Notes: generated by a model not told the origin, from the sequence alone. Shown: positions 943 to 34,279, counted from the first letter of the stretch. The stretch is 34,761 nucleotides of DNA from a bacterium (GCA_021161885.1 JAGGZS010000023.1:1-34761); one strand, 5' to 3'. Made by a program: numbers and translations.

Positions 943-1278
943 ATGTCTCAATCTGACAAAATCGTAAAACAAATCAAAAAAGCTACCCGAAGAAAGTTTA
1001 CTGCTGAAGACAAAATACGTATTGTCCTTGAAGGTCTTCGAGGAGAAATCAGCATTTCTCAATTATGTAGACGGGAAAGTATTGCTCCATCAGTATATTA
1101 CAAATGGTCTAAATCCTTTCTTGATGCCGGTAAAAACGGTCTTACCAGAGCAACTGTCCGCAATGCTACCAGCGATGAAGTTCATCATCTAAGATCAGTG
1201 AACAACGACTTGAAACAAGCTGTTGCTAAACTCACTTTAGATATCATAAAGTATAAAAAAAGTCTGGGAATGTGGTAA
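943..1278 (+). CDS. IS3-family transposase OrfA (HTH DNA-binding subunit)
   Basis: The 111-aa product contains RRKFTAEDKIRIVLEGLRGEISISQLCRRESIAPSVYYKWSK, the classic IS3/IS911 OrfA helix-turn-helix, followed by a leucine-zipper-like C-terminus. A GGAG lies upstream of the ATG. Confidence 0.85.
   Translation: MSQSDKIVKQIKKATRRKFTAEDKIRIVLEGLRGEISISQLCRRESIAPSVYYKWSKSFLDAGKNGLTRATVRNATSDEVHHLRSVNNDLKQAVAKLTLDIIKYKKSLGMW
1255..1262 (+). promoter_or_regulatory. A7G run: likely -1 frameshift or transcriptional slippage site joining OrfA to OrfB
   Basis: AAAAAAAG lies in the OrfA/OrfB overlap. The -1 frame opens exactly here: it has TAA at 1254-1256 and then reads KKSGNVVRIKRRY. This is analogous to the A AAA AAG motif of IS3-family elements. 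The phase of the heptamer relative to OrfA is not canonical. Confidence 0.45.
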
Positions 1279-2303
1279 GAATCAAAAGAAGGTATCAAAG
1301 AATGAATTCACAAGATAAACTAAAAATTATCCGTCAAGTTGAGTCATCTCATAACATCAGCAGTGCGTTACATAGACTGGGCATAAACCGAAGTACTTAT
1401 TACAGATGGAAACATAAATTCAAATTGCTTGGTTCTGCAGGGTTATCTGACATCAACCCCATGGTTAATAAAAGATGGAACCAGTTAAGACCGAATGAAG
1501 AAGAAAAACTCTATGAACTGGCTTTATTTAAACCGGATTATTCATGCCGATAACTTGCATGGTATATTACGGATTATGAAGGGTTCAGCGTGTTAGAAAG
1601 CACCGTTTACAGGCGACTTAAGGCAAAAGGGCTTATCCCTGAACCTCGTATTAAAACGTTTGCTGCATCGCAGGAGTATAAAATCAAAACCACCGCGATC
1701 AACCAGCAATGGCAGACAGATGCCACCTACTTAAAAGTTAAACGGTGGGGATGGTTTTACTTAATCAGCGTACTTGATGATTTCAGCCGTAAAATACTTG
1801 CATGGGAATTACGATCATCAATGAGACACGAAGATTTCAGTTATGTTATAGAGCAGGCATGTGAATTTACAGGAATAGATAAAAAAGACAGTGAAAAGGA
1901 TACTTTTAACGTTAGATTAGTAACGGACAATGGTCCGGCTCTGATTAGTTCTGATTTCGCTGATTATCTGGAAGCTAAAGGGATAGGACATATATTCGCG
2001 TCACCTTATCATCGGCAAACCAACGGAAAAATTGAACGGTATCATAGGTCAGCTAAAGATAAAATATTATTGCATGTATGGGAATCACCGGACAAATTGA
2101 AAATTGAAATCGATAGGTTCATAAATTGGTATAACGGCTATCGTTATCATGAAGCTTTGGGCAATGTTACACCGGACGATGTCTATTTTGGTCGAAAAAA
2201 TTCTATACAGAATAAAAGAAAAATGCTACAAAAGAAAACTATGATAGCAAGAAAAAGGTTTAACAAAAATTCAACTGTAACAAGGGTCAAAACTCTCTCT
2301 TAA
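1272..2303 (+). pseudogene. IS3-family transposase OrfB (HTH + DDE/rve integrase core) interrupted by an in-frame TAA
   Basis: ORFs 1272-1553 and 1590-2303 share one frame and are separated only by TAA at 1551-1553 (...[30 protein letters not shown]...). The downstream part carries the DDE triad context [18 protein letters not shown] and [10 protein letters not shown]. Confidence 0.8.
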
Positions 2304-2438: not shown

Positions 2439-3344
2439 ATGATAGCGATTACAGGCATATCCGGTTATATAGGTTTTCATCTTGCCCATTATCTTAAACA
2501 AGAAAAACAAAATTTTTTAGGACTCATAAAAAAAAACACCAATCAAGATGACATAAACCTTCTTGAACAAAATAAATTCCAATATAAATTTGTGGATTTC
2601 AACGATGAAGATACAATGGCGCAAGCTCTTAAAGATGTCGACATTATTGTCCATTTAATAGGCAGTATTTATCGTCCGAAACAAATGACTATGGAACAAA
2701 TGCACAAAGATATAACATCTATAATGGTCAGAGCGGCGATAAAAAATAAAGTAAAAAAAATAATCTATATCAGTGCAATAGGCTCAAAAAAGGATGCTGA
2801 AAGTGAATATCATAAAACAAAAGCCCTTGCCGAACAGGAAATCATCAACAGCGGTATCCCTTATGTTGTGCTGCGGCCTTCCTTGATTTTTGGAAAAATG
2901 TACGGCAGGAGAAACAGTAAACTGATAGATAAATTAGCGCAGTCAATATCTAATCTTCCGTTCATTCCTGTAATCGGATCAGGCAAAAACAAACTTCAAC
3001 CCCTTTTCGTTATGGATCTGGCAAGGTGTATTTTCGAATCAATTAACCCGAAAATAACCGGCGTTACCATAGAAATTGGGGGTCCGGAAATATTGCCTTT
3101 TGATGTAATCGCAAAAAAAATAGCCAAATCAATTAATATGGATAAAAAAACTTTAGTGAAAATTCCTAAACCTATTGCGGCTATGCTTGCGTGCGTAATG
3201 GAAAAGATAAGCGCCCAGCCGAAAATCACCAGAGACCAGATTCGCATGACCAAAAACGATAACGTATGCAGCTCAAACTTATCGGGTAAATATTTTTCGT
3301 TTACAAAAAAAAGTATGAACGATATTCTGAAGCATCTTGTTTAA
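2439..3344 (+). CDS. NAD(P)-binding atypical short-chain dehydrogenase/epimerase family protein (NmrA / NDUFA9-like)
   Basis: 301 aa. The N-terminal Rossmann motif is IAITGISGYIGFHL (GxxGxxG) and the catalytic-type motif is YHKTKALAE (YxxxK). The overall layout matches the NAD-dependent epimerase/dehydratase fold. Confidence 0.85.
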   Translation: MIAITGISGYIGFHLAHYLKQEKQNFLGLIKKNTNQDDINLLEQNKFQYKFVDFNDEDTMAQALKDVDIIVHLIGSIYRPKQMTMEQMHKDITSIMVRAAIKNKVKKIIYISAIGSKKDAESEYHKTKALAEQEIINSGIPYVVLRPSLIFGKMYGRRNSKLIDKLAQSISNLPFIPVIGSGKNKLQPLFVMDLARCIFESINPKITGVTIEIGGPEILPFDVIAKKIAKSINMDKKTLVKIPKPIAAMLACVMEKISAQPKITRDQIRMTKNDNVCSSNLSGKYFSFTKKSMNDILKHLV

Positions 3345-3379: not shown

Positions 3380-6300
3380 TTAAGCTGCTTCATCGAAATG
3401 AGCGCTTTGGTTAATAGCATCTATAACACTGCTGTTGACCGACCTTGCGTTTGCCTCAATCCGCAGGTATTTAGCAAAATTCTGCGTAACCGACATAATT
3501 CCAAGCGATTCAACACGGTGTATGAAATCGCCTAATTTAGGCGGATTGTCTTTATTGATCGCGCGTAATCTGTCGTATACCTGCTTGATAAAATAAAGAT
3601 CAAGCTGCTCCTTAACTTTTTGTTCCAATAATGTGAATTCTGTTCCAGATACAGCCTGATGTGATATAAAATGCATAAAAACAGATGCGACATCTTGTTT
3701 TTCCACTTCTTTAGCCATAAGTTTTTTGAAAAGCAGGTCGCGAATAACCAAATCTTTTGTCCTGAATTTTTGTTCGACTTTCGCTTTAAGTTCCGTATCA
3801 AGCGAAGGCAGGACTTTGGAATAAAAAATATCCGTTAAACTGCTGTATGTAAAAATTTTTCCTTTAATAGCGTCTGCCTGCCGTATAAAATCGTTAAATA
3901 CAGCCATAATATCGCCTATTTTAGAATTACTATCTTTATCGAGTATAATACGGTCGCTAATATCTATTATTTTTATATCATTAGGAACTTTTTTAGACCC
4001 GAATGACCTTAGAATATCTATCATAAACACAGCTTTGCTATTTTCAAGCATTCCCTGCATAACCAATCCTGAATCGACAATTTGGTAACGCAATCCGTTA
4101 TTCTGTGAATACTCGGCAAGTTTTCCGCCGGGTATATCTATCATCTTAACCCTGCCGGCAATATCTGATTCGGAAAGATCGGGATACTCGGTTTTTATTA
4201 ATCCTATAAGCTCGTCAACCGATTTGACTGTAACGATGAAATCAAACAGATTGTTACTTGAATCACCTTCCCTGCGTTCAGTAGTTTTATCAAGTTCAGT
4301 TTTAAAAATGCCTGTATTTTTATCATTTAATGAAATAGCCACAAAAACAGCCTGACGCCCTTCATTTTTACGGTTTTCCATCTTAAATTTCCTGAATGTT
4401 TCTTTTAGCATAAAATTAGCCGGAGACAATTCGCCTAATATCAATTCCTTCGGGAACAAGAACAAATCGGGTTTAGACATTGTTGCCTTAATAACATTTA
4501 CGGATTTACGCAAAAGGCTTTTTGAGATTTCAAAATCAGCCTTATCAGGAACATAGTCGAAGTCGATATCAAGTTCTAACTCGAAAATTTCCCGGAGCTG
4601 TGAGATGATTTCATTAATCTCAACCGGAGATAGCGGACGGGTTTTCTTTATATTGCCCATTTTAATAATACGGTCTATCAAAGGTTTATATCTTTGGTTC
4701 TCTAACCCGTTTAATGTTAAGGTTTCTATTATGTCAGGCAGTTTATTGCCGAAATAATCTCGTAACCGCGCGGCTTTTATATTTAAGTCCGCATCAGTTA
4801 AAGCAGAATTTTCAGGCAATGATTTCAGGTATTCCCTTGCGCCTATATGGATAAGAACTTCTTCCATACCGCCTCTTAATAATGCATCGAAAAACCCCTG
4901 TCCGAGAAAAATCACTTTTTGCCCGCCAATTACGCGCGCGTCTGTAAAATGGTAACCGTTTAATGTTGTACTGATTCCGTAAGAGCCGTCATTAGAAGGT
5001 ATAACCGCTATCTTAGCTTGTTTAATGTAATCAAGCACATTTTGCAGTAATTCAGCGGTTTTCGGATTGTCTTTGTTCAATGTATTGATACGGGTTTGTA
5101 TAGAATTCATACCTATTTCAAGCATTTTCGCTTTTAATCCGCGAGGCACAAGATTTTCCACTCCGCCCGCTTCATCAATTGCCGTATTTATTATTCTGTC
5201 CGTGAATTCCTGAGCGTCAACCGCTGATTTTACAATTTCCTCTTCAGTTCCGCCTATTTGTTTCTGAACAAATTCGCTTACAAAATCCTGAATTGATAAA
5301 AGCACAGCTTTGCTTACCGGTTTCTTATCAGATAGTTTAAACTTTTCGATCACCTTGCTGTACATGCCATTTACAAATGTATCGAACTTAAGGCTATCCG
5401 CATCAAGGTTATATAATAATTGCGACACAGGTAAATCGGAATAAAGCAAAATATAGCTTCGCAGTTTTTCTATGGTAAATGAACTTACCTCTACAGGTCG
5501 CTCAATGTTTCTGTTTTTATCTATAGATTTATAAGTTGCGTTATCTGCGGGAGTTTCCATATTGTCGTCAGCCTCAAGTTCTGTCTTTGAAGTAACCGGC
5601 GCAATCTGATTGGCTATTGTATGATATTTTGCTTCCAGTTGTTGGGCATCTTCAATATTTCCGGATATCCATTTCCTTAATTCACGGGTTAGTTCAGCTC
5701 GTTTAGCATCGGTTAAATCTTGCCATGATTTATCGATAATACCAGCTATATTTAACGCTTTTTTCTGCCACAGGTGCATTTCGACCACTTCATGCATGGC
5801 TAATGTTTTATCATAGGCTTTTTCGGCGATATAGATGCAATTAAGCTCTATTCCTGCATGGGCGCGTTGTACCCCGGTTAAAACCGAAGCGTTCTTAACG
5901 ATATAAACTCTGACAGGGTTGCCGTCGTAAACTATTTCTCCAGACCGGATAAGATTGCCGGATAATACTGCTTTACGAATAGCCTTGTTCACATTGCTGT
6001 GAGAACCGGCTTTTATGCCCACATCAGCTATATTAATATCGTCTTCGTGTTCTCCCACAACGCCTCTCATGGTATTATCGCTTTTTTCTTCCTGTATATA
6101 TTGAGCATGAAAATGTTTCTGCATAAGATGCACTATCTCCGGGTCGATAAGCGACATAGTTATTGAGCCCGGATAAAATTGTTCAAGAATATTAGCGAAA
6201 TTAGTGAACGTATCGGACAACAATCCTTTACCTCTGAGTTTATCTTTATTTTCCCTTCCAAGTGAAAGGTAATTCAAATGTGTATATTTGAGTTCAGGAT

Positions 6301-9300
6301 AGATTGTAAAATCTATGAGGAATAAACCGTAATCCTGCGATAAATTACCGCGTAAAACATTGTAAAGGTTCTTTTTAATATTACCAGCCGTATCAACAAG
6401 CACGCGGAAATCTATTTTATCTTTTTGTTTTTCACTTGTAATAAGAGTAACAACCTGAGCCTCGGGAACATCTTCAAGCTGCGCCTCAACCATAACTTTA
6501 TTTGTCATAAAAGAACTATGTGTTTGAATAACTAAAGCTGTGTTCCCGTTATTAATTTCTGTTAAGGTATTCCACAAATTAGGGGCAATCCATAAAGAAA
6601 CGGGCAGTTTAGTTATGTTCTCCTGTGTTAATTCCTTATTTGCTTGTTCTATTTGTGATGCCGGTTTTTGCGGTTGTTTGGTTTGCATTTTTTTCTGTAT
6701 TTTTTGAGAGGATTTTAATTCTTCCGCAGATATTCCTTCAAGGGTTATCTCACCTTTTTGTTGATTTGTTCCGTCTTTGATGGTGCCTGTCATTTGATTA
6801 TTAAAATCAGATTCATAGGCAGCGTCAAAATATTTAGCCATTAAATGTTTGCTTGACGGATGAAGTATTTCGGCGGTTATTTTACCCGGATAATAATGTT
6901 CAAGAATATTCACAAACCGCTCAAAAGTATTTATCATCAGTTTATTGCCCTGAAGCTGATCGGTATAAACGCGTCCAATACGCATATTGTTGAAATGAAT
7001 CATATCCTCTTTGAAATATTTTCTAAATGCCAGTAAATATTCGAATTCACCATCATAATCTACTCTGCCGCTTATAATCTGTTTTATATTTTTACGCACA
7101 TAACCCGCCTTATCGGCTATAACCCTATGATCTACGTAATCGGAATTAAAATCGCTCATAATAATGACAACCATTTGATCGTCGTCTATTAATGCTAATT
7201 GGTCTGTCAGGTCTTTTCGATTCGCCGCATTGATGCCATGCGCCTGTATAACTACAGGAGGTTTACCGTTATTAATGGCTGAAAAAGCATTCCATAAATC
7301 ATCTGCAATCCAAGCCGCAGCAGGCAATTGGTCAATAGTTTCATCTTTAATTTCATATTTATCCGTTTGCTTTTGAGATATGTCAGTTTCATCGAAACCC
7401 GATTGTAAATTAATGTATACGTTTTTATTTACAAGAAATTGTTTTAAAGAATCGGCTATGTTCTCAAGTTCAGTTTTATGCCAAGTTCCTATTCTTAATA
7501 TTTTGTCTTTACCTTTATTTTGATCGATTATATCCGTTAAATCTGCGTAAGCGCTGGATAGAAAATCTAAACCGTCTACCTTATCTGATGCGAGAATTCC
7601 CTCAAAAAGCATTTTTACTGTAAAAATGTCGGTATCAAGAGTCGATGACAATTGCGGATAATTATTTTTAACTATGCCGGATACTACATTATTGAAATAC
7701 CGCGCCATAAACATTAATAAATCGGAATATTTATCTGTTGATGATACGTATCCCAAGTCGACAATAGCCGCATTATAACCTGCATCTTTATCACCGGAAA
7801 CCATTATATTGCTGGGGTTTCTGTCATAATAAAGTTTAATGAAATTGAAATTTTTATGTACTTGATACAGTGCTCCGACTCCGACTTTTAAAATATCAGA
7901 TAACCGTTTCATATATTCACTGGCTTTTTCATTTGGTTTCATCATTAACTGTCCTGAAATTATTTTGCCGTCCCTATTTTCAACCAACATAGGTTCGCCT
8001 GGCAAAACAGATTCTGTATACACATCAAAAACAGGTTCAGCAGCAATTTCCCCGGGTTTAAACGCTCGTGAAGCAACCAGCGGCACAAGATCGGTTTTTC
8101 CTTTTCCCCTTTTTTCTCCATAAGCAAGAATAAGGTTAATATTTTCTATATCGAATTTTGAATCCGGACGCCGTTTGGATTTTAAAATAAACTGCATCGG
8201 CTGGTGTTCGCCCTTAACAAAAACAGTTATTTTATGGGCATATTTAAAATAACCTCTGCCTATATAATCGATATGAATGGATTCAATCATATCTTCGGTT
8301 ATATCTTTACGGTCAAACAATACGAATAATGTTCTTCGCAAAAGATTAGTTTCCTTTAAAGACTTTGTTATTTCCTCTGTAATTTTCGGACCGTTATTGA
8401 CAAGTCCGTCCTCATTATAAAAATCGGGAAAGGTACCGTTATATTTTTCAGAATAAGTTACAGTCCACTGCATACGTTGTTTTTGTTTGGTATCCGCCAC
8501 CTTTGGCATAAACTTTTTTATAACCCGCCATCCAGCTGTTGTTTGTTCTATGCCGGCGTTATTATCAAGCATATTGTCTAACATTGTGTAGAGTTTATCG
8601 TTAAAAGATTTTGCCTTTTCCGCGATACGTTTATCTTTAGCATTGTCTATCCACCATGACAACTCCCGTCTTGCTGTTATAAAATCGGTATTGCGAGAAT
8701 ATGGAGTATCAACTAAACTTTCAAACAAATTAATAATCTCTTCAGCGTTTGGAGCGTAATCAAAAGCATATTCATGCCGGAACTGATCTAACTGGAATAA
8801 AATAAGTTTTAAATGTTCCGACTCATCACGCGATCTGAGCAGGCCGCCTATTTCTAATCCCATCGACTTAGCGAGTTTGGAAATCAACTCATCATAAGGC
8901 AATGTAATATCCATATCGTCAAGTATTCCTATCATTTTCGCAGGCAAAGTTCCGTTATCAATAAATGTTAATACATCAATTAAAAAGGCTTTATTGGAAA
9001 ACGCCGGTTTGATTTGTTCAATAAAATTTTCAAGCGGCATTTTCGCTTTCTCCAGCCCGGACAGAAGCTGTTGCAAACTTTCCCTGAACTGTACGCTTTC
9101 CCATACCTTTAATTCTGATTCATCTTTAGGGGACAACCCTGCTTCATGGAGCAGTTCATGACGCAGGAACATTTTGAATAATAACTCGATTACCACCGGA
9201 TTTTTTATTTGAAAAATAGCTTTGTTTATTCCGATAAAATTATCGTCCAGATGATTTTCAGCTATGCGAAACGATTTAGTCAGCATAACAAAATCTATTT

Positions 9301-12300
9301 CACTTCCCTGAAGATTTTTAAGTATTTGTTCCTCGCCTGTTAAAATATCTTTAATCCAAGTTTCTATCATTTCGTTGGTAACAGGCGCTTCATGTTCAGA
9401 ATCGGCAAAATCATCATCGATTTTCATAGTGAATTCATAAGGTGTTCCGTTTTCAGTGATCAAAATAGGTACCTTGGCATAAGAGATATTCGCGAGTATC
9501 TCATTTAAACCTGTATAATTATTTTTGTGGAGCTGAAAATCATCACAATGATACTCAGGCGCCGGTATCCCGCCCATAAAAAAGCCTATTCCTGATAAAA
9601 TTTTAGCTAAAGGACCGTCCAGCTTCTTCACAGCCGCTTCTACATCGGGAGTTAATTCAGGATATAAACCGGCATATAATTTTAAAGTCGGTATATCTTT
9701 CCTGTTACCCAGTTCACCAAGAGCCTTTACTGTTTCCCGTTTAATGGAAATCCGATCCGCATAAAGCAGATGCCTTAAAATAGGAGCTGATTTTTTATCG
9801 CCTTTTTCGAGCATCATCGAAGGTATCTCTATCAGTACGGCCCTGTCATCGGCGGTTAAATCACGGCGGTCAAGTTTTCTTAATATATCTGCGAGAACCC
9901 CGATATAATTATCGCCGGCTATATCAATCATGGCTTTTAGAGCGGCTTGTTTCACATAAAACGAATAAGGGCTGTTTTTATCTACTATTGAATTGCCAAG
10001 TGTATTCATAGCATCGGAATATTTGTTCCTGCCCATAGCCAAAGCGGCTTGTTCTTTTTCGATATTATCGCCGGCTATATATAACCTTAAAAGCTCTTCA
10101 TTAAAAATTTTTTTCTTTAATGTTTCAACAGCTATTGTACTTTGAAAACCTTTATTTTTGTAGACGAGATGAAGTAAATGGCGAACCGCGCTTTTATCGC
10201 CTTTTCTTCCAAGCAAAATTGCCGAAGCGTCAACTATGCCTGCTTCCTGATTATTTAATCCCAGCCTTAAATACGCTATAAGATCATCGCCGTACTGCTC
10301 GAGAATATCTATCAAGTCATTAAATTCCAATGAATTTTCCGCTGTTGCCATTAGGTTCAGACTGTTCCATATATTATCAGACAATTTAAGCTGATTGGAG
10401 CGGTCAATACCGCGGGATTTAAGAAAATCGCCCGCCGCTTTTCTTACATCAGGATTCGGGTGTATAAGCAGATTATCAGCATCAACGTTCAAATCGGCTT
10501 TTAATTTATCCAAAACTTTTATTGCCAATACGACCGAAGTATCATCGGATTGTTGTGAAATGATTTTCCGCATAAACGGGATAACGGATTTATCGGCAAG
10601 TTTAAACACTGTTTTTTGAGCTTGCAGAGCTACTTTCTCGGAGCGGTCATTTATCATAGCGAACACATCCGCCATTGCGTCCGCATTACCGGTTTGGCCA
10701 ATAACATACAAAACTCCTTCACGGATGTTGGGGTTTTCCTTGTTCAGCGCGGTAATCAATAACGGTAACGCCTTGTCTTTAACAGCGGTTAAAGTATCTA
10801 CGGCAACGCTTCTATCTATAAGATTAAAACCAGCGAGACGGTTTATATTTTTTCTTATATCCGATTGCGTAACAGAATTTTTGTCTACAATATTTTCAAG
10901 CGCCCTATTCTCAATGGAGTACCCTATCGCGTTCAGTTTCAGCATTTCGTTGAGTTCCTTGAACACACTGGCTGTAAAATTTTCAGAAAAACCCCTGTTT
11001 GACATTAACGAGACAAACGCTTTCTGGTTAAATGAAGTGCCTGAACGCAAAGCCTGTTTAAGGGCAGGAGCGAAAACAGCGAGAAAATCGGTTACAGGAG
11101 TATAGCTGTATTTACCGTTAATTACGGCAGGAACATTTGTTTTTAGGGTAACTTCCAAATCAGCGGCTATGTGCATAAAGTTCAAGACCGTATCATACGA
11201 TTTTTTCTGGTCAAGAATAAATGTTTGGATTGCTTCCGCTTCTTCATGTGATAACCCCGCAAGATGAAACGCCTCATGTAGAACTACTACGGATTTTTCT
11301 TTATCAGTAAGAAGATTAGCGAATTTACCGCTCATATAAATATTATTCCTATCCTGATAATGTCCGTAATGAGCCGCAGCATATCTATTTCCTACCCAGA
11401 ACAAGATATTATCTGCCGGCAGGGAATAAATTTGCGTATTGTCAAGCGCTGTTGAAATATTGTCGATAAATTTATTAAAATCCGATTCAGAGTTTATTCC
11501 CTTTTCCTCAAACATTTTGTTAAGAAGGGGATTAACTGATAACTCGGCATAATTAAGTTCGGATAATAACGATTTTGCCTGTTTCCTCTCTTCCTTAAAA
11601 GGTAAAGGCTGAGGTTTTTTATCAAATAATTTTTTTATCATCTGGTTAAATGCGTCATGGCGGTGTTTGTCTGTTCCGCAAATATTTCCGAAAGACAGAT
11701 TATCTGCCTGATTTAAAGCCGCTAAGCGAACATCAGGCAGCTCTTTCCTGCGGGACACGGATAATTTTAAGTCTTTATTAGATAAAGCGTCATTAAGCGC
11801 AGTAAGAAACTCTTTAGCGGTCTTATACCGTTCGGTCTTATTTACCGCTAAAGATTGTTTCAAAATTTTTGTTATTTCAGTTCCCAACATAGATTCCATA
11901 AAATCGAAATCAAAATCACCTGATTGTATTAAGTCTGCCGTAAATTTGGTTTCGTCGAAATTGCGTAATTGGTCTGTTGATAAAAGTTGAAGTTTGGCGG
12001 ATACCGGATGGTGTCCTGTTAAAAGTTCGGCGAAAATAATGCCTAAGATAAACACATCGTTCTGCTCACTTAAAATTTCATACATCGTTTGTACTACTTG
12101 CCGATTTATCGTATCACGCAATTTATTGTTAATTTGTGTAGGCACTGATACATCAAACGGTTTAAGCTCATCGGCTATTTGCGGCATAACCACATTTATA
12201 AGAGTATTATAGGACGTGCTATATTTAAGTTCGGATTCCGTAAAGACGGATTCAAAAATAATTTTAATATTTTTTAATTGAGCGATTATATCATCAGCGG

Positions 12301-15300
12301 TTTTTAACGAACTGATTTTTCTTAATAAATCCTGCACCTTATTTTGCGCATTAGCCGCGTCAATCTTTTCAGGTGAAGAATAAAAAATATTTTTAGCGGT
12401 TAGCGATGGTTCTGAAAAAGGGCTGCTCTGACCGATTTTTAACGCTTGCGATAATCCTGTAAGAACTAAGGTATTGTCTGATCCTATAAACATATCAAAC
12501 GGGGTGATATCGTTTAAAACAATTTTTTTATCGTACATACCGATGAGCTGTTCTAAAACAGATTGCGCAAACGATAAAAGCGTTTCCGGCGAACTGATAT
12601 TTTTTGTTTTTTGCTCCATTGTTAGTGGATTATCTAATTTAATTGATAGAAAAGGGTTTTCTTCAAGCAGGTTATCGCCTGTAATTGCAGTTTGCTCGGG
12701 ATACATAGTTTTTGTTAAACTCATTTCCCGCTGCCAATCTTTAAATAAATTTTCAAGCTGTGTTCTTGAGAATCCGTCAAAGAGAGGAAGTTTAATCATT
12801 TTTATAAGAACAGTATTGCCGTTTTTATCCTGTCCTCTAAAAACAATGCTTTTATTATTTTCCCTGACAACATTTTCAATAGAATAATCTCCGGCTTTAC
12901 CGCTTAAACGGATGATATTTTCTTTTACTATGGCAGAAGAATATTTAGCGTAAAAAGTAACATTGTTAATCAATTTCTCTGCGACTTTTTTGTGCATTAA
13001 ATTCAGGTTTGTCGCTTTATCTACTTGTTTTATCATAGATGTTTCATTGCGGATTATTGTTTGGAAATATTTTTCAAGTTTCTGGAAATCTTCTAAAGTT
13101 CGGGCATTGTTAATTCTTGAAATAAAATCGGTCTTGATACGGTCACTGGCTAATCCGGGTTGTCTGTTTCCTGTGCGGTTAAAAACAGATTCAAGGGCAA
13201 GTGACGCCATATGCGGAAGCTCGTAAGCGGATTCGTCAATCTGCGACCTTAACATCTGGGCGAAAACCGTTGTGTTTGATGTTATATATTCAACAGGCAG
13301 GTAAATATGTATTTCACCGTTTCTTTTATTTGCTAATGAATCTACCCCTATATTTTGTAAATCGTTTATGCTTGCCAAATGTAAAATTACTGTGCCTGAA
13401 GCGGCAGTCGGGCTAATCTTTACTGTTTTGATACCCTCAGGCGAATGATTTATCTGTTCAATAATATTGCCAAGCATATCCGCAAGATCGGACATATAGG
13501 TATCTGACAAAATAGTCATCATACTTATTTGTTCGCTTATCTGTTTGCCGTCTTGTTTAATCCATCCGCTTAAAGTTGATATATAACTTTTTAAGCTGTT
13601 CGCCATCTTTGGAGTATATGAATAATTGTCCCAAGAGGTAGTAATAGAATTTAATGTTTCCGGATCAATCAGCGGAGCTTGCGCCGTCCATTGCGGTTCT
13701 TTTTTTAATAAACCTGAAAGAGAAGCCTTAACTTGCACCTCAATTTTATGTTCTTTATCTGTTTGGATATCCGATAAAACAACAGTTTTTTCACCAGAGT
13801 AAGCAGTACCGGTTTTCTGCTGAACTTTTTGCCATCCTTTACCTTCAGTCCACAACCATCCTTTAAGGTAATTTGCTGCGAGAATTTTTCTGACGGCAGC
13901 ACGATTGTAACTAAAAATAGGGTTAGATGAGTACTTCGGAGTATCATCATTGCTTGTAGCGAAGGCTATTATCTCAAGAATATTTGTTAAATAAATGTCT
14001 TCGGTTTTACCGTTTTTAATAAGATTTATCCTGATGTCATCAGGAGTCGAAAAATATATTCCTCCAACAATGAGTGCCCAGAACAACTGCTTATTATTAT
14101 CTATTGCCCATTGCAAAAATTGAAAAGGAATTTTTTCGATCCGGTATCCGTCTTTTGTTTCACCAAGATCGAAAATTTGATAATTTTCAGGCGTTTGTTT
14201 GTTATATTCATTTATTGCGTTTTTAAGTTTTTTTGACGGGTAAAAATTCATATTAACATTTACGGAAAAACGAATCGTACGTAGAGAATCTTTTATAGAA
14301 TAAGTATTACAGCAAGCGAACAGGATTCTCATTATATCGTCTGCCGGCATAATTTTTTCAAGATCGTTTATTTTATCCGGTTCAAGCACTGCCTGCTCCA
14401 TTAAGGTCAATAACGCATGATGACCTATGTACTCATGAATAAAAGTTTTACGCGGGGTTTTATCGGATACGAAAATCTCTCCGTGACGGCGCCATCCTTT
14501 GCGGACTTTATTTATCCCTTTAATCCGGCTTTTAAATATCGGTTTAGCCGATAGCGCTATCTCGTTGCCCCAGTTCGGTAAAGAATTCACTATTTCATCT
14601 GGGATATCCTGCAGTTCGGATAAGATAAGATTAAGATTATTAAGCAGATAAAACCGTTGGTCTTCGGTTTGGAGTTCGTTTGCGTCAAGGAAAATCGATG
14701 CGTTAATTCCTTTTTTATGCAGTTGTTGTATCTGTTTTATGATGCCTTCTTTTTTCAATAAATTGAAATCAAGCGAATGAAGCATACCGTCGGCTTGTTT
14801 TTTATCTTTTGCATCATGTCCTGTGCCGATAGTATCGTTGAACTCGCTGTAAAGCCAAATAAGGGTTTTTATATCTTCGATAATGTCTGTCAAGTCAACA
14901 TCTAAAGTTTCGTTTAATTGCGTTAATTCATCTTTCAGGTTTTCATATTGCAAAGCAGCATCATCTTTAACGCGTCCGATAGCGTCTGTGCGTGAAGTCA
15001 TTGCTTTATATAAATCATAATTAATAAAAATAGCTGACGATATTTTGTCCGCTGATTCCCTAACATAACGTTCTGTTAATGTCCTAATTCGAGCGTTTCT
15101 TTTTTCAATAGGAATATCAGTGTTATTTTTAATATCAGACAGAAGGGTTTTAAGTGATACTGTTTCGTTATTATAATTTATTTTCGCATCACGGCTTTTC
15201 TGCAGATGTTTCCAAAAGGCGTCAACCTTAGCAAAATCAATAATATCTTCCCCAAACTCAACCGGGTCAATAACTCCGATATCTTTTTGGTGGGCAGAAA

Positions 15301-18300
15301 ACATTTCTGGATTTTCAGTTTTATTTACGACAGCGGGAGAGGTTTTATAAAGATCAACCCATGCCCTGAACCACAGGTTTTTGGGGTTTTTAAACAGTTT
15401 CCTTAAAAGGTTATTCCATATGACTGCTTCCTGACTTTTTTTTGCTATAACCCCTCGCGCCCAATCCCTGAATTCATGTTCAAGAACCGTTTTTAATACT
15501 TTCATGCCGAAAACACGGTCGTTACCGCTCATGTTATCTACATATTCCAAGGTAGATGTGTTCAGATAAATTGTTTTTCTGCTCAAACCGGCATGAGCTA
15601 ACGCATCGCCTCGGAAAAAAACACCTTGTTCATCAACAAGCAAAGTCAAGAAAAAATCTTTAAGATAATCTTTATATTCCGAAGACCTTAAAATCAATAA
15701 AGCTGTTTTAAGAGCTTTTTGCAGTTTTACCCTGTATTGCGGGTTATTGAGTTTAGTTTCAAAATTTTTTCTTGCCGTATTAGATATTTTTAGATTAGCT
15801 TGTAACTTAACGGCTAACTGGGCTGTTGATAAATCTTTATCAAACAAAGTATAGACGAGTTCATCTATATTTGAATAATCCAAAGCGATACTTTTAAGGT
15901 CAATACGGATTGCGTCGCCGTTTTCTATGAGTTTAGATATTTCATTATCCACATTTGCCCTAATTTTCCCGCGGGCTAAACTTTGATTATTACGATTGTT
16001 GTCTGTTTCATCCTGTACTTGCGCTGTCTGCGCCATAATTTCAGGCAATATATTCCATAAAGCGGTAATTGCTCCGATTGAGAACCCAGCCATCGTAAAA
16101 ACTAAATTAATTATGGTTGACACAGGTTCAGCAGTGTCAATCATATATTGAGAAGCCATAGTCGAGAGAAAAGCTCCCAAGAAACCGAAAAATGTTCTTT
16201 GAGTTAATAAATCTGGGTTTGATTTTAGTTGCCTTATTACTCCTGCAACTAACAGTCTTGACGGTTCAACGTATTTATTTTTAAATTCTGCCCATAATTG
16301 AGGAAACACAGGCATAGTAATTGGTCTTGCCAATACCGGTTTAAGCGCGTTATAAGGGCGAATAAGAAGGAAATCACCAACTGTAATAAAATATTCAAAA
16401 AATGACGCGATAAGTGAAGAAAATAAAAAATTAACAGCCATAACAGGCGCCATTAATACGGTTTGAACTTTCTCATATCGACTAGCATGCTTGCCGAATA
16501 TAAAAATTGGAAGCGCAAATATCGCATAACCTAAAACTAATGCCCCAGATATCATCAGCAGCATATCAACTAAATGAAATATCGGTATCATTTCAATGGT
16601 CATAAACCCGAACATAGCAAATACAGGCACAAGCGCTGTATACATAATTGTTGTTATAATAGCCGGTATACGCATGTCCTTAGGCATTTTTGCGCCTTTA
16701 CGCATTAGCTGAAACATTCCGCCCGACCATCGTCTAGCCTGAATCCATTTTCCTTTCAATGTTTCGGGCATATCTGTTATAACCCTGAAATCTCTACGTC
16801 CGAAAAACTTAAATTTAGAATTTTTATTTTGCCTCAGCAAACCGGATAATTCGGCATCGTCAGTTTCAAAAATACCCGAATGCTTTTGTAATGCCCTAAC
16901 TAGATAAGGCACCAAATAACCACCGCCTCCCCCTGGAACCGACATAGTAAAAAAGGTATTTAACGACCTTAACCATGCAAGATAAAGAAAATTTATTTTT
17001 TTAAGAAGCGAGGTGCCTTTAGGCAAAGTGCCGAACGAGGTAGATAAAGGCAGTATATTGGCTATGATACGGTTCCCGTCTTTTTCAACATGACCTAACA
17101 TATTGGCGGCGTCTTTGAGCGCGCCTGATATATCTGTGCCTTCAATGTAAGAATCGCCGTCCATAATAAAAAGTTTTTCAGGCAATTTTTTTATTTTTCT
17201 ATGTTCAGCAAGTGAATATAACCCTAACACCGCATCTCGAATAGCGCCTGTTCTATGCCCGTTTTTATCACGTAAAATCATATTAAAATCATAAACCTGT
17301 TCACCGGTTTCCGGATTAATATAGTTTTCCCATGAAGCAAGTTCGTTTCGTGTTATGCTTTCAAGAGCTTGTAACCCTTGGCGTTCATCATCGGTTATAT
17401 CTGCTTTTGCAAGCCGTAAGGCGATATCTTGCAATTTCGCGTTGAGCAGTTTAATATTATATTTCCTGTTAAAGCGTTTGAGTAAATCTTGTGTTCCGTC
17501 GGTTGAGGCGTCATCAACTATAACGAGTTTATCAAGATATTTTCCTTCATACGCTTTTTTGAGAATATTTTCCATAAGGTCAGGATCATCTCGGGACAGA
17601 AGGTTAAATACCGGAGTAACTATAAAAAAATCCGATGCGAATTCTAAATCTTTTAATTGATCGGCATATTGGATTTCGTCAAGAGGAAGCGGCCGGAATT
17701 CTTCCAAACTGCTAACAGGTATTTTTGAGGAAAACCGGCGTAAATCTATATTATATTTTTCGCCGTATTTATCTGTAAAATCGGCAAGATTTTCTATAAC
17801 AACTTGTTGTTCCTTACCAAATATTTTTTTAAGGTTTGTCTTGTTTAAAGCTGCGGCTCTGCTTAATAACGCCAAAACTTTACCTGCAGATAAAACCCCC
17901 ATCTCATCAATTAATTGTGAAGATATAACAAACTCCGGCAACCCTTTAGGCTGTATTTTGAAATATTCTTTTATTTGTCCGTCAACTTTATGCAGTTCCC
18001 TTATTTCTTTCGGACGATTTTGAAGTTCCGCCCAAAATTTTTCTACCTGTTTGAACGATATTGGTTTTCCTTGAAAATAAACAGGCTCAACTTTCCCTAT
18101 ATCCTCCGCGTGTCCGCCCCGCAGATAATCGCGGTACTCGTGTTCGTAAACCGCTTGCAGAATACGTTTTGAGTATGCCTGATCTTCAGGCTCCATTTCG
18201 GCGATATACATCAGGGTAGACAAATTCAGGTAAAAACTTTTATTTTCAGCACCCACATGCGAAAGGGCTTGCGCGTTATAAAATTCACCTTCCCAATCAA

Positions 18301-21300
18301 GCAGAACGGTTAATGAAAAATCGGAAATTTTGTCGATTATTTTTGAAGACCGTAAAACATCAAACCCGAGAACCAACGATTTTCTCAGCCGTTCTTTGCT
18401 CATCGGGTCAGAGAGCTGTTTTTTTAATTCTTCTTGGGCAGCAGCCGGCAAATCCGTAAATAATCGTTGGAGATTAACTGATGTTTCTTCTGGCGATCCC
18501 TCAAAAAGCGGATTTATTATATCTTCCGATACATTATTGTTCAAGCTATCAAGGGGTACTCTTACCGCTTTGCCGGATAAAATATGTTCTCTTATTATTT
18601 TATTAATATCCTCAACAGATTTTCGCTGAAGGCTTTTTTCTGAACGCACAGTTTGGGGACTTTTTAAAAATTTTTGATCGCCATTAACGGCTTTTTGTGC
18701 GCGGGCAAGTTGTTCTGCCATTACAATATCTATTGTTTGCGACGTTAACTGCGCGTAAGACTCAATAAGGTCTAACGGGAACAAAGAAGCAAACGTCGTT
18801 CCAACCGCTTCAGAATCAAATTTATTTATAAAGGAATTGATATTTTTGCCGTAAGAATTTTTAACGGCTTCGTCAAGATAACTGAGCATATCAAGAGCCA
18901 GCTCAGAATGTTTGTTTAATAAATCTGAAATAATATTTAATGAATCTGTTTTGTCTTTTATATCACGTTCGTTACGTATAGTGGAATTCATATAAGTAGA
19001 AGATACAAGCACATCAACAGCCTCAGCGAAACTATCAAAGCCGGCAGGCATTTGCGAACTGAGTTTAAACTGAAGAGCAAGTTCTTTGTTATTATATAGT
19101 TTTACATCGGACTTGACAATTTGAGATAGAGAATATCCTGTTGAATCTTTAAATAACCGATTAAAAGATGTAAGCGTTAAAGGAATATCCATCTGCTGAG
19201 ATGTTTCAGCAACAATTTCCTCAAGAAAGGCTGTCTGAGCCTTACCGGAAACAGGGGTTCTTAGTAAAGAAAACATAAAATCGACTATTTGGCTTGCTGT
19301 AGATTTATCTAAAAGCTGTTTGCCGGTAAATGACTGCGATAACCGCAAAGCCAACATAGATATTCTATCTATTTCAGTCTGATTAATATACTGCTGGTTA
19401 TTTTTTCGTTTAAAAAACTGTTTTGCCTGCGGATTATTACGCAGTAATGTTTGCGGATATAAACCTGTAATATCCATAACAAACTGTTCAAAATCAGAAT
19501 ATGCTTTATTTGATTTTAATAAAATTGTATTAAGCGCAAGACTGCGCGCCTGATTGTCGGGAAGGTTAGAAAATATTTTCATAAAACTGTTTACAAACCT
19601 AATGGGCGTAACATAAATCTGACCGTTTAAAGCATATTCGATTATTTTAATATCTGTATCTATATTAAACGATTTCAATGGGCCATCCAACTGATTTGAA
19701 ACTTTTTCCGTATATAACCCTACAGCCCAAGCGACAGCCTCATCGCCTAATTCACCGTTAATAGTCTTTAGCGTAGCAGGGGTAAATTTTTTATTTTGGT
19801 CTGTAATCCAGCCATTCATTACTGACAACAGGGTATTCCAAGGATTATCTTTATTGTTCTCAACATATTCCAGTTCAGCTTCGCTAAGAGGCAATCCATT
19901 GGCTATTAGATTAAGATTTTTTATGGTTCTGCGCTGTTCTGCGGTTATATCTTCAGATTGAGAGATAAGATCGTTAAGATCGTTTTCGGAGTAAATTGTC
20001 CGGTCGCGTAAAATTGAACGGATAATCTGTTCGAAATCCATTTTCTTCACTATCTGTTTAACATTGCGCTGTGAAAGAGTATCGTTAAGTTTATTCCATA
20101 ACCGCATATCAGCGAACTGCGCATACCGTTCGTCTTGTCCGAGTTTATTCATCAAACTTTTTAACGCTGAGGCGATTGCTTTACCCCGTTCGGTTTTGTT
20201 AGGAAATTTTTCCGTTACAAAATCAATATATTTTTGCCTGAAATTTTCAGTAATATTTTTAAAAGGAACTTTAAGTATTCCGACTGAGAACTCATTGATT
20301 ATTCCGAATACCTCATTTTGAATTTCCTCAAAATCAGAGGTTGTGCTGTCTTTTATTTTAGATTTAAGTTTATCAACCACACTATCGGCAACTTCGGGCG
20401 ATACCAGTTCCGCTACAAGAAGAAGCAGGGGTAACTGATACATCATTTTAGGTGACTTGTGCATCAGGTATTTAAAAAAATTGGTTTTTGCGTACATATG
20501 GTCTATAAGTTCAAGATTAAATATTGAGTCGAGATCATCAAACAAGCTGTTTTTTTCGTCTTCCGTTAAAGTTTCAGTAAGTTCCAACTTAGCGACTATT
20601 GCCATTAAAGGCGCGAAAACAGCTGATGCTTCAGCGGAATAAACATTATATAGAAGCGGACTTTTTAGGGCGTCATCAACAAAAAGTTTCATTTCATGAG
20701 CTTTTGAGATTTGCACAAGTAAAGCGGCAAGTTTTTCTACTGGAATATCTTTTATTTGATTAAGCAGCACATCAGCGACCGGATTTTCCTCTTTATTTAT
20801 GTTAAGAAGTTTAAACATTCTTTTAACGATATTTATTTCTATTTCATTATTTTCTATATAAATAATATGCGCACCTTGCGGATAACCAGGAAAAGGATAT
20901 GTTTTATCGCTCAGGATATACTGGGCGGGAGCAATATTATAAAACGGATCCTTAATTCTTTTCCCTCTTAAGATTAAAACAGTCTCCTGTTTGCCGTTAA
21001 TGGTTACCTTATGTTCTTCAACGTTATCGTTATAGAAATCAAAAATGTATTCGCCGTTATAAACAATACCTATATGAAAAAAGAAATCAGCATTTATTTT
21101 TGTTCGGAACTCCATAAACATTTCGTTTCCTGCTAACCGGTCGTTAGCGTCTCCGCTTCGCATTAACCTGCCTATTTCAAGCGCATTGGCCATGAAATTT
21201 TCAATATGCTCCGCAGCTTTTTTAAATCCTAAACTTTGGATTTTATCAGTTAAATTTTTAAGGTTTTTAATCGCCTCTGGATCAAGTTCCTGTTTGTTTT

Positions 21301-24300
21301 CAACAAGCGCGTCTATAGATTTAGCCAGCTTATCGCCCATAGATATTCTTGTTGTCTCATCAACAATATCTAATACAGGCAGCTCATTTTCTTGCTGAAC
21401 AGGTAAACTGTTCATATGCTTTACAATATTTTCTAACGGATTAGATGAGTTGAGAATATCTTTTAAGGTTTCATTATCGGATTGACGCTGAACCATATTC
21501 AAGCCTCTTAGGATAGCATCTATCGCAAGCCGTTGGTTATTGCGCGCAATACGCGAGGGGACTTGCCCTTTTAAAGGCAAATATCCGACAAGAGCGTTTC
21601 TCATAAAAACAGCGGTTCCTTGAAAAGCTGAATTCACATCAGATTCAGCGGGCAACCGACTGACAACGGTTTTAAAACTTCCTTCAGTATCGCTTTTTAA
21701 AGTTCGGCCTATAACAGCTTCATATTTATCTATATTATTTATAAGAATGCGTTCGCGGGCTAATTCGCTCGGACTCCATTGGTAATCGGAACTGTCTTTT
21801 GTTGTCCTGAATTTAACCGCAAAATCAATAACATCGCCCAATTGTGCCTTTAAATTAGGATATTTTGATGATAATGAAGGATTTTCTATTAAAACACGGG
21901 CGATTTGTACAACCTTGTCCAATCGGGCGCGCTTTATGTTGAATTCAGATATATGCCTGAGCAATGCTTGGGTATCTGTTTCAGCCGGTTTTTTCGATTC
22001 ATCCATAGAAGAAAAAACTATCGGTTTAATTTGCTGAAAACTATTGGACTTTTTTGCCTGAAAAATTTTCAGATAATTATCGTTAGAAACAATTCCTACA
22101 CGATACAGTAAATCAATAATTGAAAAGAAATGTTTATAATTGGATTCATTAATTTCGGTTTGTTTAAAATAATCTCGTATTTTAAATTCAGCTCCTATTT
22201 CCCGATTGAGAAGGGATACCACCCTTAACTCTTTAGTCAGACTTTGAACAGGCACGGAAGATAACCCCGCCATTTGGTATAGCGCGTATTCATTGCGTAT
22301 AAATTCCGATCCCAAACCGCCAACTTGCTGTAACTGCTCGGAAAATGACAAGTTGCTCTGGGATATGCCTTCACGGCTTATGGTTTTCTTAAACGTAAAC
22401 GCCAAGTTCTCAAAGGTAGTTCCATAAGCTATTGCCGGTATGTTAGAGCGTAAATTAGCTAAGGTATCGGCGTTCAATGATATATTAAAAGAGCCGTCGT
22501 CTAAATTTGATACTGTTTTTATAAGGATAATATCTTTATCCGTTAATCCTTGCTGAGAAGCGGCTCGTTCAATAATTAGGTTAATTTTGTCGGCATTTCC
22601 CAAACCGTGCCTGAAATCATATTCAATGTTAATTACAGTATAAGGTTTTTTGTTATTCATTGCTAATAAAGCGTTATTTAATCGTTCGCCTACAAACGAC
22701 TGGGCGGGCAACTGTTGTAAAATATTTTGTGTATCACTTATATCAAACGTAATATTTGTAAAATCGCCGGAAACAAAGCTGGTCAGGTTATCTATCAGTC
22801 GGGATATATCGTTTTTCTCCATTTGGGCAAGATAAGGAACTGCAGCAGGATGAGCCGGATCGTTCACGACGGATTTAAGTATATCCGTAAGAACTGCTAA
22901 TCCCGCTTGATTAGAACTTTGCTCCAGTTTATTAAAATACGCTTCACTAAAAAGAGGCTGTATATTTTTCGGTATAGTTACCCCCTGATTTTTTAACTGT
23001 AAAAATTGAGCCGCAATATCTTTAAAATTATGGACTTCAGCAAACTTGATTTCTGTAGATACTATGCCTTGCGATTGTTCACGGCTAAGATTGATATCAG
23101 CATATAGTTTAGCAAGTTTTTCGGCGGTCTCAACAGGATACGCAGGTTTTTCAGTAGTATTTTCTTGTTGGTTATTTGTTTTATAGCTGTCTATATAATC
23201 GGTAAGTTTTTTTTCAAAAACAATAAGTTCTTCAAGCGTCCTTTGGTAACCGCCTATTTTTTTCACTATCTGATAGCTATGAATTTCTTTACGGGACTGG
23301 ATAAATCGTTGCAGACTGTTTCTGGTTTGCTCAAGAACTTTTATGCCCGTTACCGGATCGGACTGGATAATACCGTCAAAAATAGTTTCCGGCAAATAAG
23401 TCTCTATATAAATATTTTTCATTTCAGGATTTAACGAGTTTAATACACCTGATTTTAAAACCATATCTATATACAAAACAATATCAAAAAAATCTGTGGT
23501 TTTCTCTATGGCGGTAACATTGGCTAACCCAGCTTCATACTTATTATTCTCATTCATTCGAATCATTATGCCCGATGGATTAACAACAGGGATATATTCA
23601 AGCATAGATAGTTCAGCCTGCCTGTATAACACACCTGATGCCAAAGAGATAATATTGCTTAACCTTTCGGAATATTCCTGTTCGGTTTCCGCGCCAAGCA
23701 TATGAACCATATCTTCTGTAGATTCTTGCGAGATAAGCCGTACTAACGGCTGACCCTGTAAATATGATTCTATAAAAAAGTTATAGTCTGCTTGAGTATT
23801 CCCGTCAAATTCATTTACAATACCTGCGAACACAGGGCTTATCGCTTCCTGCCCAGCTTGCTCGCCAAGAACAAAAGGCTCAAGATTTTTTATCAATAAA
23901 CCCATGTCGCCTTTCTTATGCTGATTGAGCACAAACCGGTAAGGCTCAGGCTGTCCTTCTATAATTACGCTGACAAGATGGGCATATTTTAATGCGCCTT
24001 TTTGTAAATAATCAATATGAATATTTTTTATAGATGAAGCCGGCACATCAGTAAGCCCATATATGGCAAAAAGCATTTGCTTAACCAGATTTGTATTTTT
24101 TAGGATATTTTCTATTTCACTTAAAATTTCCGTTGCCGGTTTTTCGGCTGAAACATCCATATCTTTTGATATGGTATTATATATATCAGCATGGGATATG
24201 TGCCAATTTCCCCTAATTTTCGCGTCATTTTTCTGTTCAAGCAAGTTATCCAACTTAGAATATAATCGGGCAAAATTAGACCATGCGGTTTTGCGCAGCT

Positions 24301-33756: not shown

Positions 33757-34270
33757 CAGACCGGGAATTGCAGCCGGTTTTACCGAAATATTTTTTAAAA
33801 ACGGATGCAATCTTGAAGAATCAAGCATGACTTTGCTCCATAGGGATTTCGCTATGATTATCTTAATCAGCATACCTGATGATTTATCCACAAGCATACT
33901 GAACAATAAACTTAAAAAAACCGCTGATAAATTTAATTTATCTTTTTCTTTACGGGAATTATCCGACGATGAAACAAGCAATGGCGAATACGATCCCGAA
34001 CCAAACTACAGTTTGTCAATATACGGAATCGACAAAGCCGGTATGGTATATGCCTTCACCAATCTTCTTGCGCAAAAAAATATAAATATTATTGATCTGG
34101 AAACACAAATAACGCATACTAAAAAACAACCGCTATACGGTATCGTTATGGATATATTGGTGCCGGACCGCGTTGAGATCGAATCTCTTACAAATGCGAT
34201 AAAAACAAAATCCCGAGAAATGTCAGTTGATTTTTCATTGACTCAAATTATACAGTGTGAAGAGATATAA
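33719..34270 (+). CDS. Tandem ACT-domain protein, GcvR-like (glycine cleavage system regulator family)
   Basis: 183 aa. IAVTAVGLDRPGIAAGFTEIFFKNGCNLEESSMTLLHRDFAMIILI matches the GcvR N-terminal ACT pattern, and a second ACT unit is YSLSIYGIDKAGMVYAFTNLLAQKNINIIDLETQI. The gene overlaps the upstream gene by 38 nt. Confidence 0.8.
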   Translation: MKKMIAVTAVGLDRPGIAAGFTEIFFKNGCNLEESSMTLLHRDFAMIILISIPDDLSTSILNNKLKKTADKFNLSFSLRELSDDETSNGEYDPEPNYSLSIYGIDKAGMVYAFTNLLAQKNINIIDLETQITHTKKQPLYGIVMDILVPDRVEIESLTNAIKTKSREMSVDFSLTQIIQCEEI

Positions 34271-34279
34271 GAGAAAAAA

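Follow-up and report, generated by a model that had tools for sequence, protein, structure and literature searches.

Bacterial pseudokinases are few and poorly studied. At the sequence level, a pseudokinase is defined as a kinase fold that lacks at least one of the VAIK Lys, the HRD Asp, and the DFG Asp (PMC12599244). Seven bacterial families, CP1, DYD, ActPs1-3, DLHK, and GLW, have been drawn from RefSeq and UniProt; the VAIK Lys is substituted in part or all of each of them, and ActPs2 carries a small insert between the APE motif and helix F, its large inserts being disordered (bioRxiv 10.1101/2025.01.12.632604). The pseudokinase domain of Mycobacterium tuberculosis MviN (MurJ), which belongs to the ActPs3 family, is a regulatory scaffold on a cell-wall precursor flippase (PMC12599244; bioRxiv 10.1101/2025.01.12.632604). 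EssB/YukC of type VIIb secretion, a small monotopic protein with all three catalytic motifs degraded, a degraded glycine-rich loop, and a reduced activation loop, is a pseudokinase that acts as a structural organizer of a membrane machine (PMC12599244). Here we examine a degenerate Hanks-type kinase domain in a contig of an uncultivated bacterium (GCA_021161885.1 JAGGZS010000023.1:1-34761), the whole 34,761 nucleotides of which are called the window below. The domain occupies amino acids (aa) 6500-6900 of a giant predicted protein. Based on sequence comparisons and a structure model, we read it as a retained, non-catalytic pseudokinase that is stably folded, and we place the probability of this reading at about 0.78.

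By the sequence definition given above, the window domain counts as a pseudokinase, with the DFG Asp missing from its catalytic triad. What we consider most interesting is the group to which it belongs, an undescribed kinase family that bears a large insert and is found in giant proteins. We therefore present the domain together with its relatives.

The kinase domain and its family

The Pfam Pkinase model (PF00069) matched aa 6533-6900 with E = 3.1e-08 and 33.8 bits, above the gathering score of 31.7, and it scored 33.2 bits on aa 6500-6910; a Pkinase match had been anticipated by the initial annotation, which was made from the sequence alone. When a 4,700-aa piece was scanned, the score was 27 bits, below the gathering score. 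This result and the margin of only about 2 bits over the threshold are the arguments for a chance or compositional resemblance in an AT-rich, low-complexity giant open reading frame (ORF). That explanation is refuted by the wider comparisons and retains next to no probability. Pkinase was detected in all six close relatives (best 2.4e-28), profile matches between the window domain and canonical kinases of the family ranged from E = 1e-37 to 1e-178, and the family hidden Markov model (HMM) matched window aa 6501-6907 at 1.1e-178. Among 1.84 billion representative proteins, a search recovered 26 ordinary kinases along with four family members. In a phmmer search of PDB sequences, the best matches were Staphylococcus aureus Stk1/PknB (4eqm, 9ymt) and Streptococcus pneumoniae StkP, with alignments that span the catalytic loop, the DFG region, the APE motif, and helix F.

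The fold agrees with the sequence matches. The AlphaFold2 (AF2) model of aa 6500-6910 shows a bilobal kinase at high confidence, with a predicted local distance difference test score (pLDDT) of 88.6 and a predicted template modeling score (pTM) of 0.88; its input alignment consisted of the window sequence, its ortholog, one canonical relative, and 27 ordinary Hanks kinases, a composition that favors a kinase-like core. The top Foldseek matches of this model in the PDB were CaMKII, Stk1, and PknB, at E ~1e-10 and template modeling (TM) scores of 0.68-0.76 on the target, with PknB (1mru) at 0.76. On the basis of its sequence and its predicted fold, aa 6500-6900 is a Hanks-type kinase domain. The initial annotation had placed it at 11783-12886; a kinase does lie there, but a conserved N-terminal helix (aa 6500-6527) also belongs to it and moves its start about 33 aa toward the N-terminus. 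To look for another canonical copy in the giant protein, overt or cryptic, phmmer was run with three family queries; it returned only aa 6500-6907. Weak Pfam matches of the segment to DUF4197, DDE_1, and ZW10 were set aside as noise. The "WW + kinase-like" modules of the giant protein were not detectably related to the kinase domain, and module 3 has no Pfam match.

Motif columns were placed by three alignments, to Stk1, to the canonical relative P0002, and to the 27 ordinary Hanks kinases (Table 1). Subdomains II, VIb, VIII, IX, and XI, which had been recognized in the initial annotation, all lie on the minus strand and align to the expected kinase columns. Three motifs of a competent kinase are nevertheless lacking: GxGxxG is replaced by RENNKS, D-x-K-x-x-N has Thr and Asp in the places of Lys and Asn, and G-L-S stands where the DFG Asp is expected. 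The absence of glycine from the glycine-rich loop and the change of the catalytic-loop Asn to Asp (D6663) had both been pointed out before, and the alignments agree. In the same catalytic loop, the Asp (D6658) is kept and the Lys has become Thr (T6660). The DFG motif had been read as LTG; there is indeed no Asp there, but the motif aligns to G6676-L-S6678, one to two residues away. No conventional HRD or DFG was found elsewhere in the segment.

Many other positions are intact. Both hydrophobic spine positions are kept, with L6656 at the HRD His and L6677 at the DFG Phe. The APE column is mostly SPE in other family copies, with some P-P-E, A-P-E, T-P-E, or S-P-Q. The helix F Asp (D6809) is invariant in the six close relatives and present in all other family copies that could be aligned at the motif.

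The relatives define what is normal for the family. Their consensus, taken from a motif table of all copies, is GxGx[FW]G, [AV]-[VI]-K, [HYF]-N-D-[IV]-K-P-x-N, [IL]-D-F-G, and S-P-E; the family is thus non-RD, with [HYF]-N-D in place of H-R-D. All members carry this xND motif and an insert of ~100 aa, including the copies with canonical GxGxFG, K, ND..N, and DFG, so neither trait is decay. This changes how two earlier observations should be understood. The HRD position had been read correctly as LND, but this is the family's regular form and not degeneration; similarly, the insert of some 90 aa after the APE motif is real, at ~94-100 aa, but it is a family trait and no part of the degeneration. 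The distance from SPE to the helix F Asp (SD) is 107 aa in all six close members, canonical ones included, and positions F, L, Y, L, P, and Y are invariant inside the insert. In the AF2 model, the insert helices cover segment residues 205-226, 230-247, 257-274, and 283-304 with pLDDT >90. The insert had no Pfam or PDB sequence match. A second insertion, of 12 aa, follows helix F in comparison with ordinary kinases. In a maximum-likelihood tree, the family is monophyletic with respect to ordinary Hanks kinases with a support of 100.

Among 79 genomes examined from the phylum, the domain occurs in only one GTDB family, the window's own, where five of the six other genomes have it. It is confined to proteins of 3,000 to 14,000 aa. 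P0002, from genome G006, is called as 5,875 aa and lies in an open frame of 9,876 aa; its two kinase copies are both canonical (GEG[TD]FG, V-K, YNDI[KR]PxN, IDFG). P0004 and P0005 (~6,200 aa; G009 contig 10, loci L012 and L014-L016) have seven tandem copies each, ~610 aa apart, and most of these are also canonical. Copies 3 and 7 of these arrays are degenerate (e.g. WLVS / YNHITPFD / ADFS; HTALHPRT / SHLA). Genomes G009 and G010, which belong to a genus other than the window's, each have one giant of ~14,330 aa with a single kinase copy. The kinase-bearing proteins of G005 and G008 measure 3,074 and 4,119 aa and contain one or two copies. The window's own genome (91% complete) contains the insert-bearing domain once only, and one ordinary Hanks kinase elsewhere.

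A single ortholog of the window domain was found, on the metagenomic contig L017 (ENA ERZ21878125 contig_19). The window protein alone as query had no relative among the genome contigs or the metagenome contigs, and the alignment of window and ortholog had none among the metagenome contigs. A search for homologous proteins with the 411-aa segment alone returned nothing at E <= 1e-8, and with the whole giant as length reference it returned only P0002. Hanks kinases within giant proteins go unmentioned in papers on the giants of Omnitrophota and in papers on Auribacterota. The family is very rare and undescribed.

Degenerate state and constraint

In four copies, those of the window, L017, G009, and G010, the loop glycines and the DFG Asp are missing throughout, and different residues have replaced them. 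In this order, the glycine loop reads RENNKS, RENNTD, EEDIIS, and EEDLIS, and the DFG position reads GLS, GLN, NLG, and NLG. The beta3 Lys is K, K, R, and R. The catalytic loop is LNDITPFD, LNSIFALD, YSNIKPAN, and YNNIKPAN, so that the HRD Asp position holds D, S, N, and N, and only the window retains Asp; the Ser of L017 is encoded by TCT, at least two base changes from GAT. In the maximum-likelihood tree, the four sequences form one clade beside the canonical G006 copies (Shimodaira-Hasegawa-like approximate likelihood ratio test, SH-aLRT, 98). Groupings that break this clade were marginally rejected by the approximately unbiased (AU) test (P = 0.034 and 0.044), the groups having been named after the tree was seen.

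As judged from these sequences, the glycines and the DFG Asp were lost long ago, in a change common to all four, and the residues now at the dead positions drift. Such a pattern would be expected of a fold that is retained after catalysis has ended, and it argues against a conserved alternative set of catalytic residues. The degenerate state spans at least two genera in addition to the ortholog's lineage, and its retention was judged from four sequences only. Note that the contig of the ortholog has a feature of its own: at L017:9520-13375 there are nine frame changes in 3.85 kb, after 9.5 kb in one frame, with 46-72% identity to the window kept throughout. These frame changes are either a local cluster of sequencing errors or the mark of a very young pseudogene.

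The residues that the window copy keeps raise the alternative of an atypical but active phosphotransferase. Such an enzyme would use the chemistry of K6561, E6586, and D6658, with D6663 taking over the metal or with a metal-independent mechanism as in CASK, and its substrate might be the glycan of the GT2 module upstream in the same protein. For CASK, in which the DFG Asp is absent, Mg-independent phosphorylation has been reported; POMK, which phosphorylates a sugar, was long counted among the pseudokinases. In the window, the beta3 Lys, the alphaC Glu, and the HRD Asp, which have the most direct phosphotransfer geometry, are all present, the fold and both spine positions are intact, and the Asn-to-Asp change is common to the window and the ortholog (LNSIFAL-D). 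The degenerate copy 3 of P0004 and P0005 also has the same ITP[FS]D loop. We considered a special kinship of the window with that array copy, but the tree groups the window with G009, G010, and G006 and separates it from copy 3, so the shared loop is convergent.

Several observations speak against such activity, and we regard it as unlikely. The phosphate-clamping loop has charged or bulky residues (RENNKS) and no glycine, and the catalytic-loop Lys is Thr. The catalytic base is Ser in the ortholog and Asn in G009 and G010, and the beta3 Lys is Arg in the latter two; as base and Lys both vary, no set of catalytic residues is conserved across the degenerate clade. Finally, the domain evolves faster than its flanks. 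The initial annotation had predicted either a pseudokinase or an atypical mode of metal or nucleotide binding, and the comparison of homologous giants favors the first of these.

The rate of evolution deserves a closer look, as it could also indicate a domain that no longer does anything. Against the ortholog, identity in the kinase is 46% over the C-terminal two thirds and 57% over the N-terminal part; the corresponding values are 62% over aa 3234-6407 and 53-72% downstream, which makes the kinase the least conserved segment. The window kinase is 23-27% identical to those of G006, G009, and G010 (flanks 32-41%), and 25% identical to G006 alone (flanks 33-41%), while the two canonical G006 copies share 39% (flanks 33% and 49%). 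Crude dN/dS values (nonsynonymous over synonymous rates) for window and ortholog are 0.30-0.43 in the kinase, the highest of the segments tested, and 0.10-0.22 in the flanks, all of them rough with dS near saturation. Of the inner branches of the tree, the stem that leads to the window and the ortholog is the longest, at 1.4 changes per site. Evolution faster than that of the flanks would be expected after a loss of catalysis.

All of these values would also suit a functionless relic, which has drifted neutrally after the loss of catalysis and persists only because the rest of the giant ORF is under selection: identity is lowest in the kinase against both the ortholog (46% in the C-terminal two thirds) and G006 (25%), the kinase has the highest dN/dS, and it sits on the longest inner branch. 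We find this quite improbable. The dN/dS is clearly below 1, even with dS saturated. The 332 kinase residues that align to the ortholog do so with zero gaps, and the length of the insert is conserved. The anchors (SPE, D6809, R6885, the spine hydrophobics, and the Lys-Glu pair) have all been kept, and the four-helix insert is modeled at pLDDT >90 although only three informative sequences cover it. The equally degenerate domains of G009 and G010 are as conserved as their flanks, with 63.6% identity between them (flanks 69% and 57%) and a crude dN/dS of 0.09-0.19 (flank 0.07-0.12), and the degenerate state has lasted across the lineages named above. These patterns point to relaxed yet continuing purifying selection on a retained fold.

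The pseudokinase reading has points against it as well. K6561, E6586, and the base D6658 are all present, and D6663, which is Asp in the ortholog too, replaces the metal-binding Asn; residual or unconventional activity, or nucleotide binding without catalysis, may be compatible with such a sequence. The single degenerate clade depends on long branches and marginal AU values, the assembly of the ortholog contains many frame changes, dS near saturation makes the dN/dS figures rough, and the 27 ordinary kinases in the AF2 alignment favor a kinase-like core by construction. The sequences show the homology, the residue losses, the shared degenerate state, and purifying selection, and the model shows the fold; we infer the lack of catalysis from the residue losses, and a scaffold role, which is probable, from analogy.

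The giant gene and its cassette

The coordinates of the domain and of the features around it are collected in Table 1. The giant protein has a hydrophobic N-terminus (aa 9-29) and, in a hydropathy scan, one cluster of four to six possible membrane spans (aa 5272-5480). On which side of the membrane the kinase cassette lies matters because the canonical relatives would need ATP.

Table 1. Features of the window, with positions in window coordinates and, where given, in residues of the giant protein.
Feature	Window position	Strand	Basis or remark
Giant ORF, 9,700 aa, which harbors the kinase domain	3380..32482	-	Sole long ORF over the span
Kinase-fold (pseudokinase) domain, aa 6500-6900, including N-terminal helix aa 6500-6527	11783..12985	-	Pfam, AF2, Foldseek, family HMM
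Glycine-loop equivalent R6540-E-N-N-K-S6545, no Gly	12848..12865	-	Aligned to GGGGMG (ordinary kinases) and GEGTFG/GEGDFG (canonical family members)
Beta3 (VAIK) Lys K6561, kept	12800..12802	-	Near-invariant K column in the alignment with ordinary kinases
AlphaC Glu E6586, kept	12725..12727	-	Near-invariant E column; E in four of four degenerate copies
Catalytic loop L-N-D6658-I-T6660-P-F-D6663	12494..12517	-	Aligned to HRDIKPAN (ordinary kinases) and [HYF]ND[IV]KPxN (family)
DFG equivalent G6676-L6677-S6678, without metal-binding Asp	12449..12457	-	Three alignments agree
APE equivalent S-P-E6705	12368..12376	-	S-P-E invariant in six close relatives
Family-specific insert, APE to helix F, aa ~6706-6803, four long helices predicted	12074..12367	-	94 columns gapped in 27 ordinary Hanks kinases
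Subdomain IX / helix F (NDVFILGIIFAELLTGHHP, D6809)	12005..12061	-	Top-scoring stretch of Pfam and PDB matches
Subdomain XI Arg R6885, kept	11828..11830	-	Invariant R column
HExxH module, aa 6905-7215	10838..11770	-	
HEAFHLAGLSH (HExxHxxGxxH), aa 7069-7079, in the module after the kinase	11246..11278	-	Motif kept in G006 and the ortholog
First HEAT_2 match after the cassette, aa 7218-7287	10622..10831	-	Pfam HEAT_2 1.6e-13 and 2.9e-07 (two scans)
IS3-like element: two HTH (helix-turn-helix) transposase ORFs and an rve integrase-core ORF	943..2303	+	
NAD-dependent epimerase gene	2439..3344		
Lipid A biosynthesis acyltransferase, double-ACT-domain protein, peptide deformylase	32746..34576	+	Divergent from and upstream of the giant gene

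The kinase domain follows ~1,100 aa after a GT2 module with the transmembrane cluster (GT2 aa ~4970-5560), and the HExxH module comes directly after the kinase, with HEAT matches from aa ~7218. Its location between the GT2 core and the HExxH/HEAT block had thus been described correctly. Giants of three genera (9,700, 9,876, and ~14,330 aa) share this order of GT2, kinase, HExxH module, and HEAT. GT2 module or modules, kinase, and HEAT lie in this order on one strand and in one open frame in G009:C19, G010:C11, and G006:C1; in these three giants the gap from GT2 to kinase is ~1,000 aa, and there are two or three GT2 copies. The kinase-bearing proteins of G005 and G008, by contrast, are encoded on other contigs than the GT2 giants of these genomes.

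The HExxH module is 41% identical to its G006 counterpart and is better conserved than the kinase. Its AF2 model is of moderate quality (pLDDT 67.9), with weak fold matches to selecase (E = 0.23) and then to BlaR1, ZMPSTE24, and HtpX (minimal zinc peptidases). The HExxHxxGxxH pattern of HEAFHLAGLSH is as in metzincins.

We propose the following course of events. The window domain would descend from an active, lineage-specific kinase family with an N-terminal helix, an [HYF]-N-D motif, and a four-helix insert of ~100 aa. This family is built into giants, after a membrane GT2 polysaccharide-synthase module and before an HExxHxxGxxH module and HEAT repeats. In the lineage to the window, the loop glycines that clamp the ATP phosphates, both the Lys and the Asn of the catalytic loop, and the DFG Asp that binds Mg were replaced, while the fold, the spine hydrophobics, the Lys-Glu pair, the APE and subdomain IX and XI anchors, and the insert were kept. 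By analogy with the MviN domain, the window domain is now probably a structural or docking module, possibly one that binds or senses nucleotides, that would hold or regulate the neighboring modules of the cassette.

A bolder version of this proposal is that the cassette, which is conserved in giants of one uncultivated bacterial family, is an undescribed regulatory system for the synthesis of envelope polysaccharides within one polypeptide, in which the window copy, with its Lys, Glu, and Asp kept and its Asn-to-Asp change, would be a nucleotide-binding allosteric switch or a kinase of an unconventional substrate (e.g. a glycan), and the insert a docking surface for coupling to the adjacent modules. 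We offer it as a speculation that is rather unlikely to hold in this form.

Outside the giant gene, the IS3-like element lies ~1 kb past its 3' end, beyond the NAD-dependent epimerase gene. On the other side, the gene for a lipid A biosynthesis acyltransferase hints that the bacterium has an outer membrane.

Comparison with described systems

The family offers built-in natural controls, as canonical and degenerate copies are found at the same position of homologous giants, and it is therefore a clean system in which to ask what a kinase fold does after catalysis is gone. It also defines a rare group, with a structured four-helix insert at a site where inserts are uncommon, that is found only in proteins of 3,000-14,000 aa and in up to seven copies in a row. 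Furthermore, it offers a starting point for understanding how domains are combined in the giant multi-enzyme proteins of uncultivated bacteria.

Among bacterial Hanks-type kinases, Stk1 and StkP are the best sequence matches in the PDB, and PknB is one of the best fold matches. All Hanks subdomains are shared with them, and canonical members of the family have their full catalytic set. The window copy differs in that it has no loop glycines, no catalytic-loop Lys or Asn, and no DFG Asp, and the whole family differs in being non-RD, in its ~100-aa and 12-aa inserts and its N-terminal helix, and in its occurrence in giant proteins only.

CASK, with a CaM-kinase-like domain that lacks the DFG Asp and the catalytic-loop Asn and is reported to be Mg-independent, resembles the window domain at the metal site: in both cases, the canonical metal ligands are lost, and the beta3 Lys, the alphaC Glu, and the catalytic Asp are retained. 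However, the glycine-rich loop of CASK is functional and its catalytic-loop Lys is retained, and the window has neither. In addition, the catalytic Asp is not conserved in the window's clade.

EssB and the window domain both have a degraded glycine loop, but the window domain is one module among those of a giant polypeptide. In function, the MviN domain offers the closest analogy, both being degenerate Hanks domains fused to membrane machinery for envelope glycans. The MviN domain has no VAIK Lys and a truncated activation loop, and aromatic residues fill its ATP pocket, whereas the window domain keeps the Lys, the Glu, and the catalytic Asp and has an activation segment of normal length and a large insert. 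MviN pairs its domain with a flippase, and the window protein pairs it with a GT2 synthase; the homology shown between the two domains goes no further than the kinase superfamily.

With the seven bacterial pseudokinase families, the window domain shares the operational definition, and like them it is conserved and not sporadic. By their descriptions, it is set apart by its VAIK Lys, which is kept, the DFG Asp being the only member of the triad that is lost; for the seven, neither a structured insert at the site between APE and helix F nor a location inside giant proteins is described. The nearest relatives of the window domain are canonical kinases of its own family, and therefore its origin is independent of the seven. 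The window domain would thus represent a separate origin of a pseudokinase with an unusual pattern, in which the Lys, the Glu, and the catalytic Asp are kept and the glycine loop, the loop Lys and Asn, and the DFG Asp are lost.

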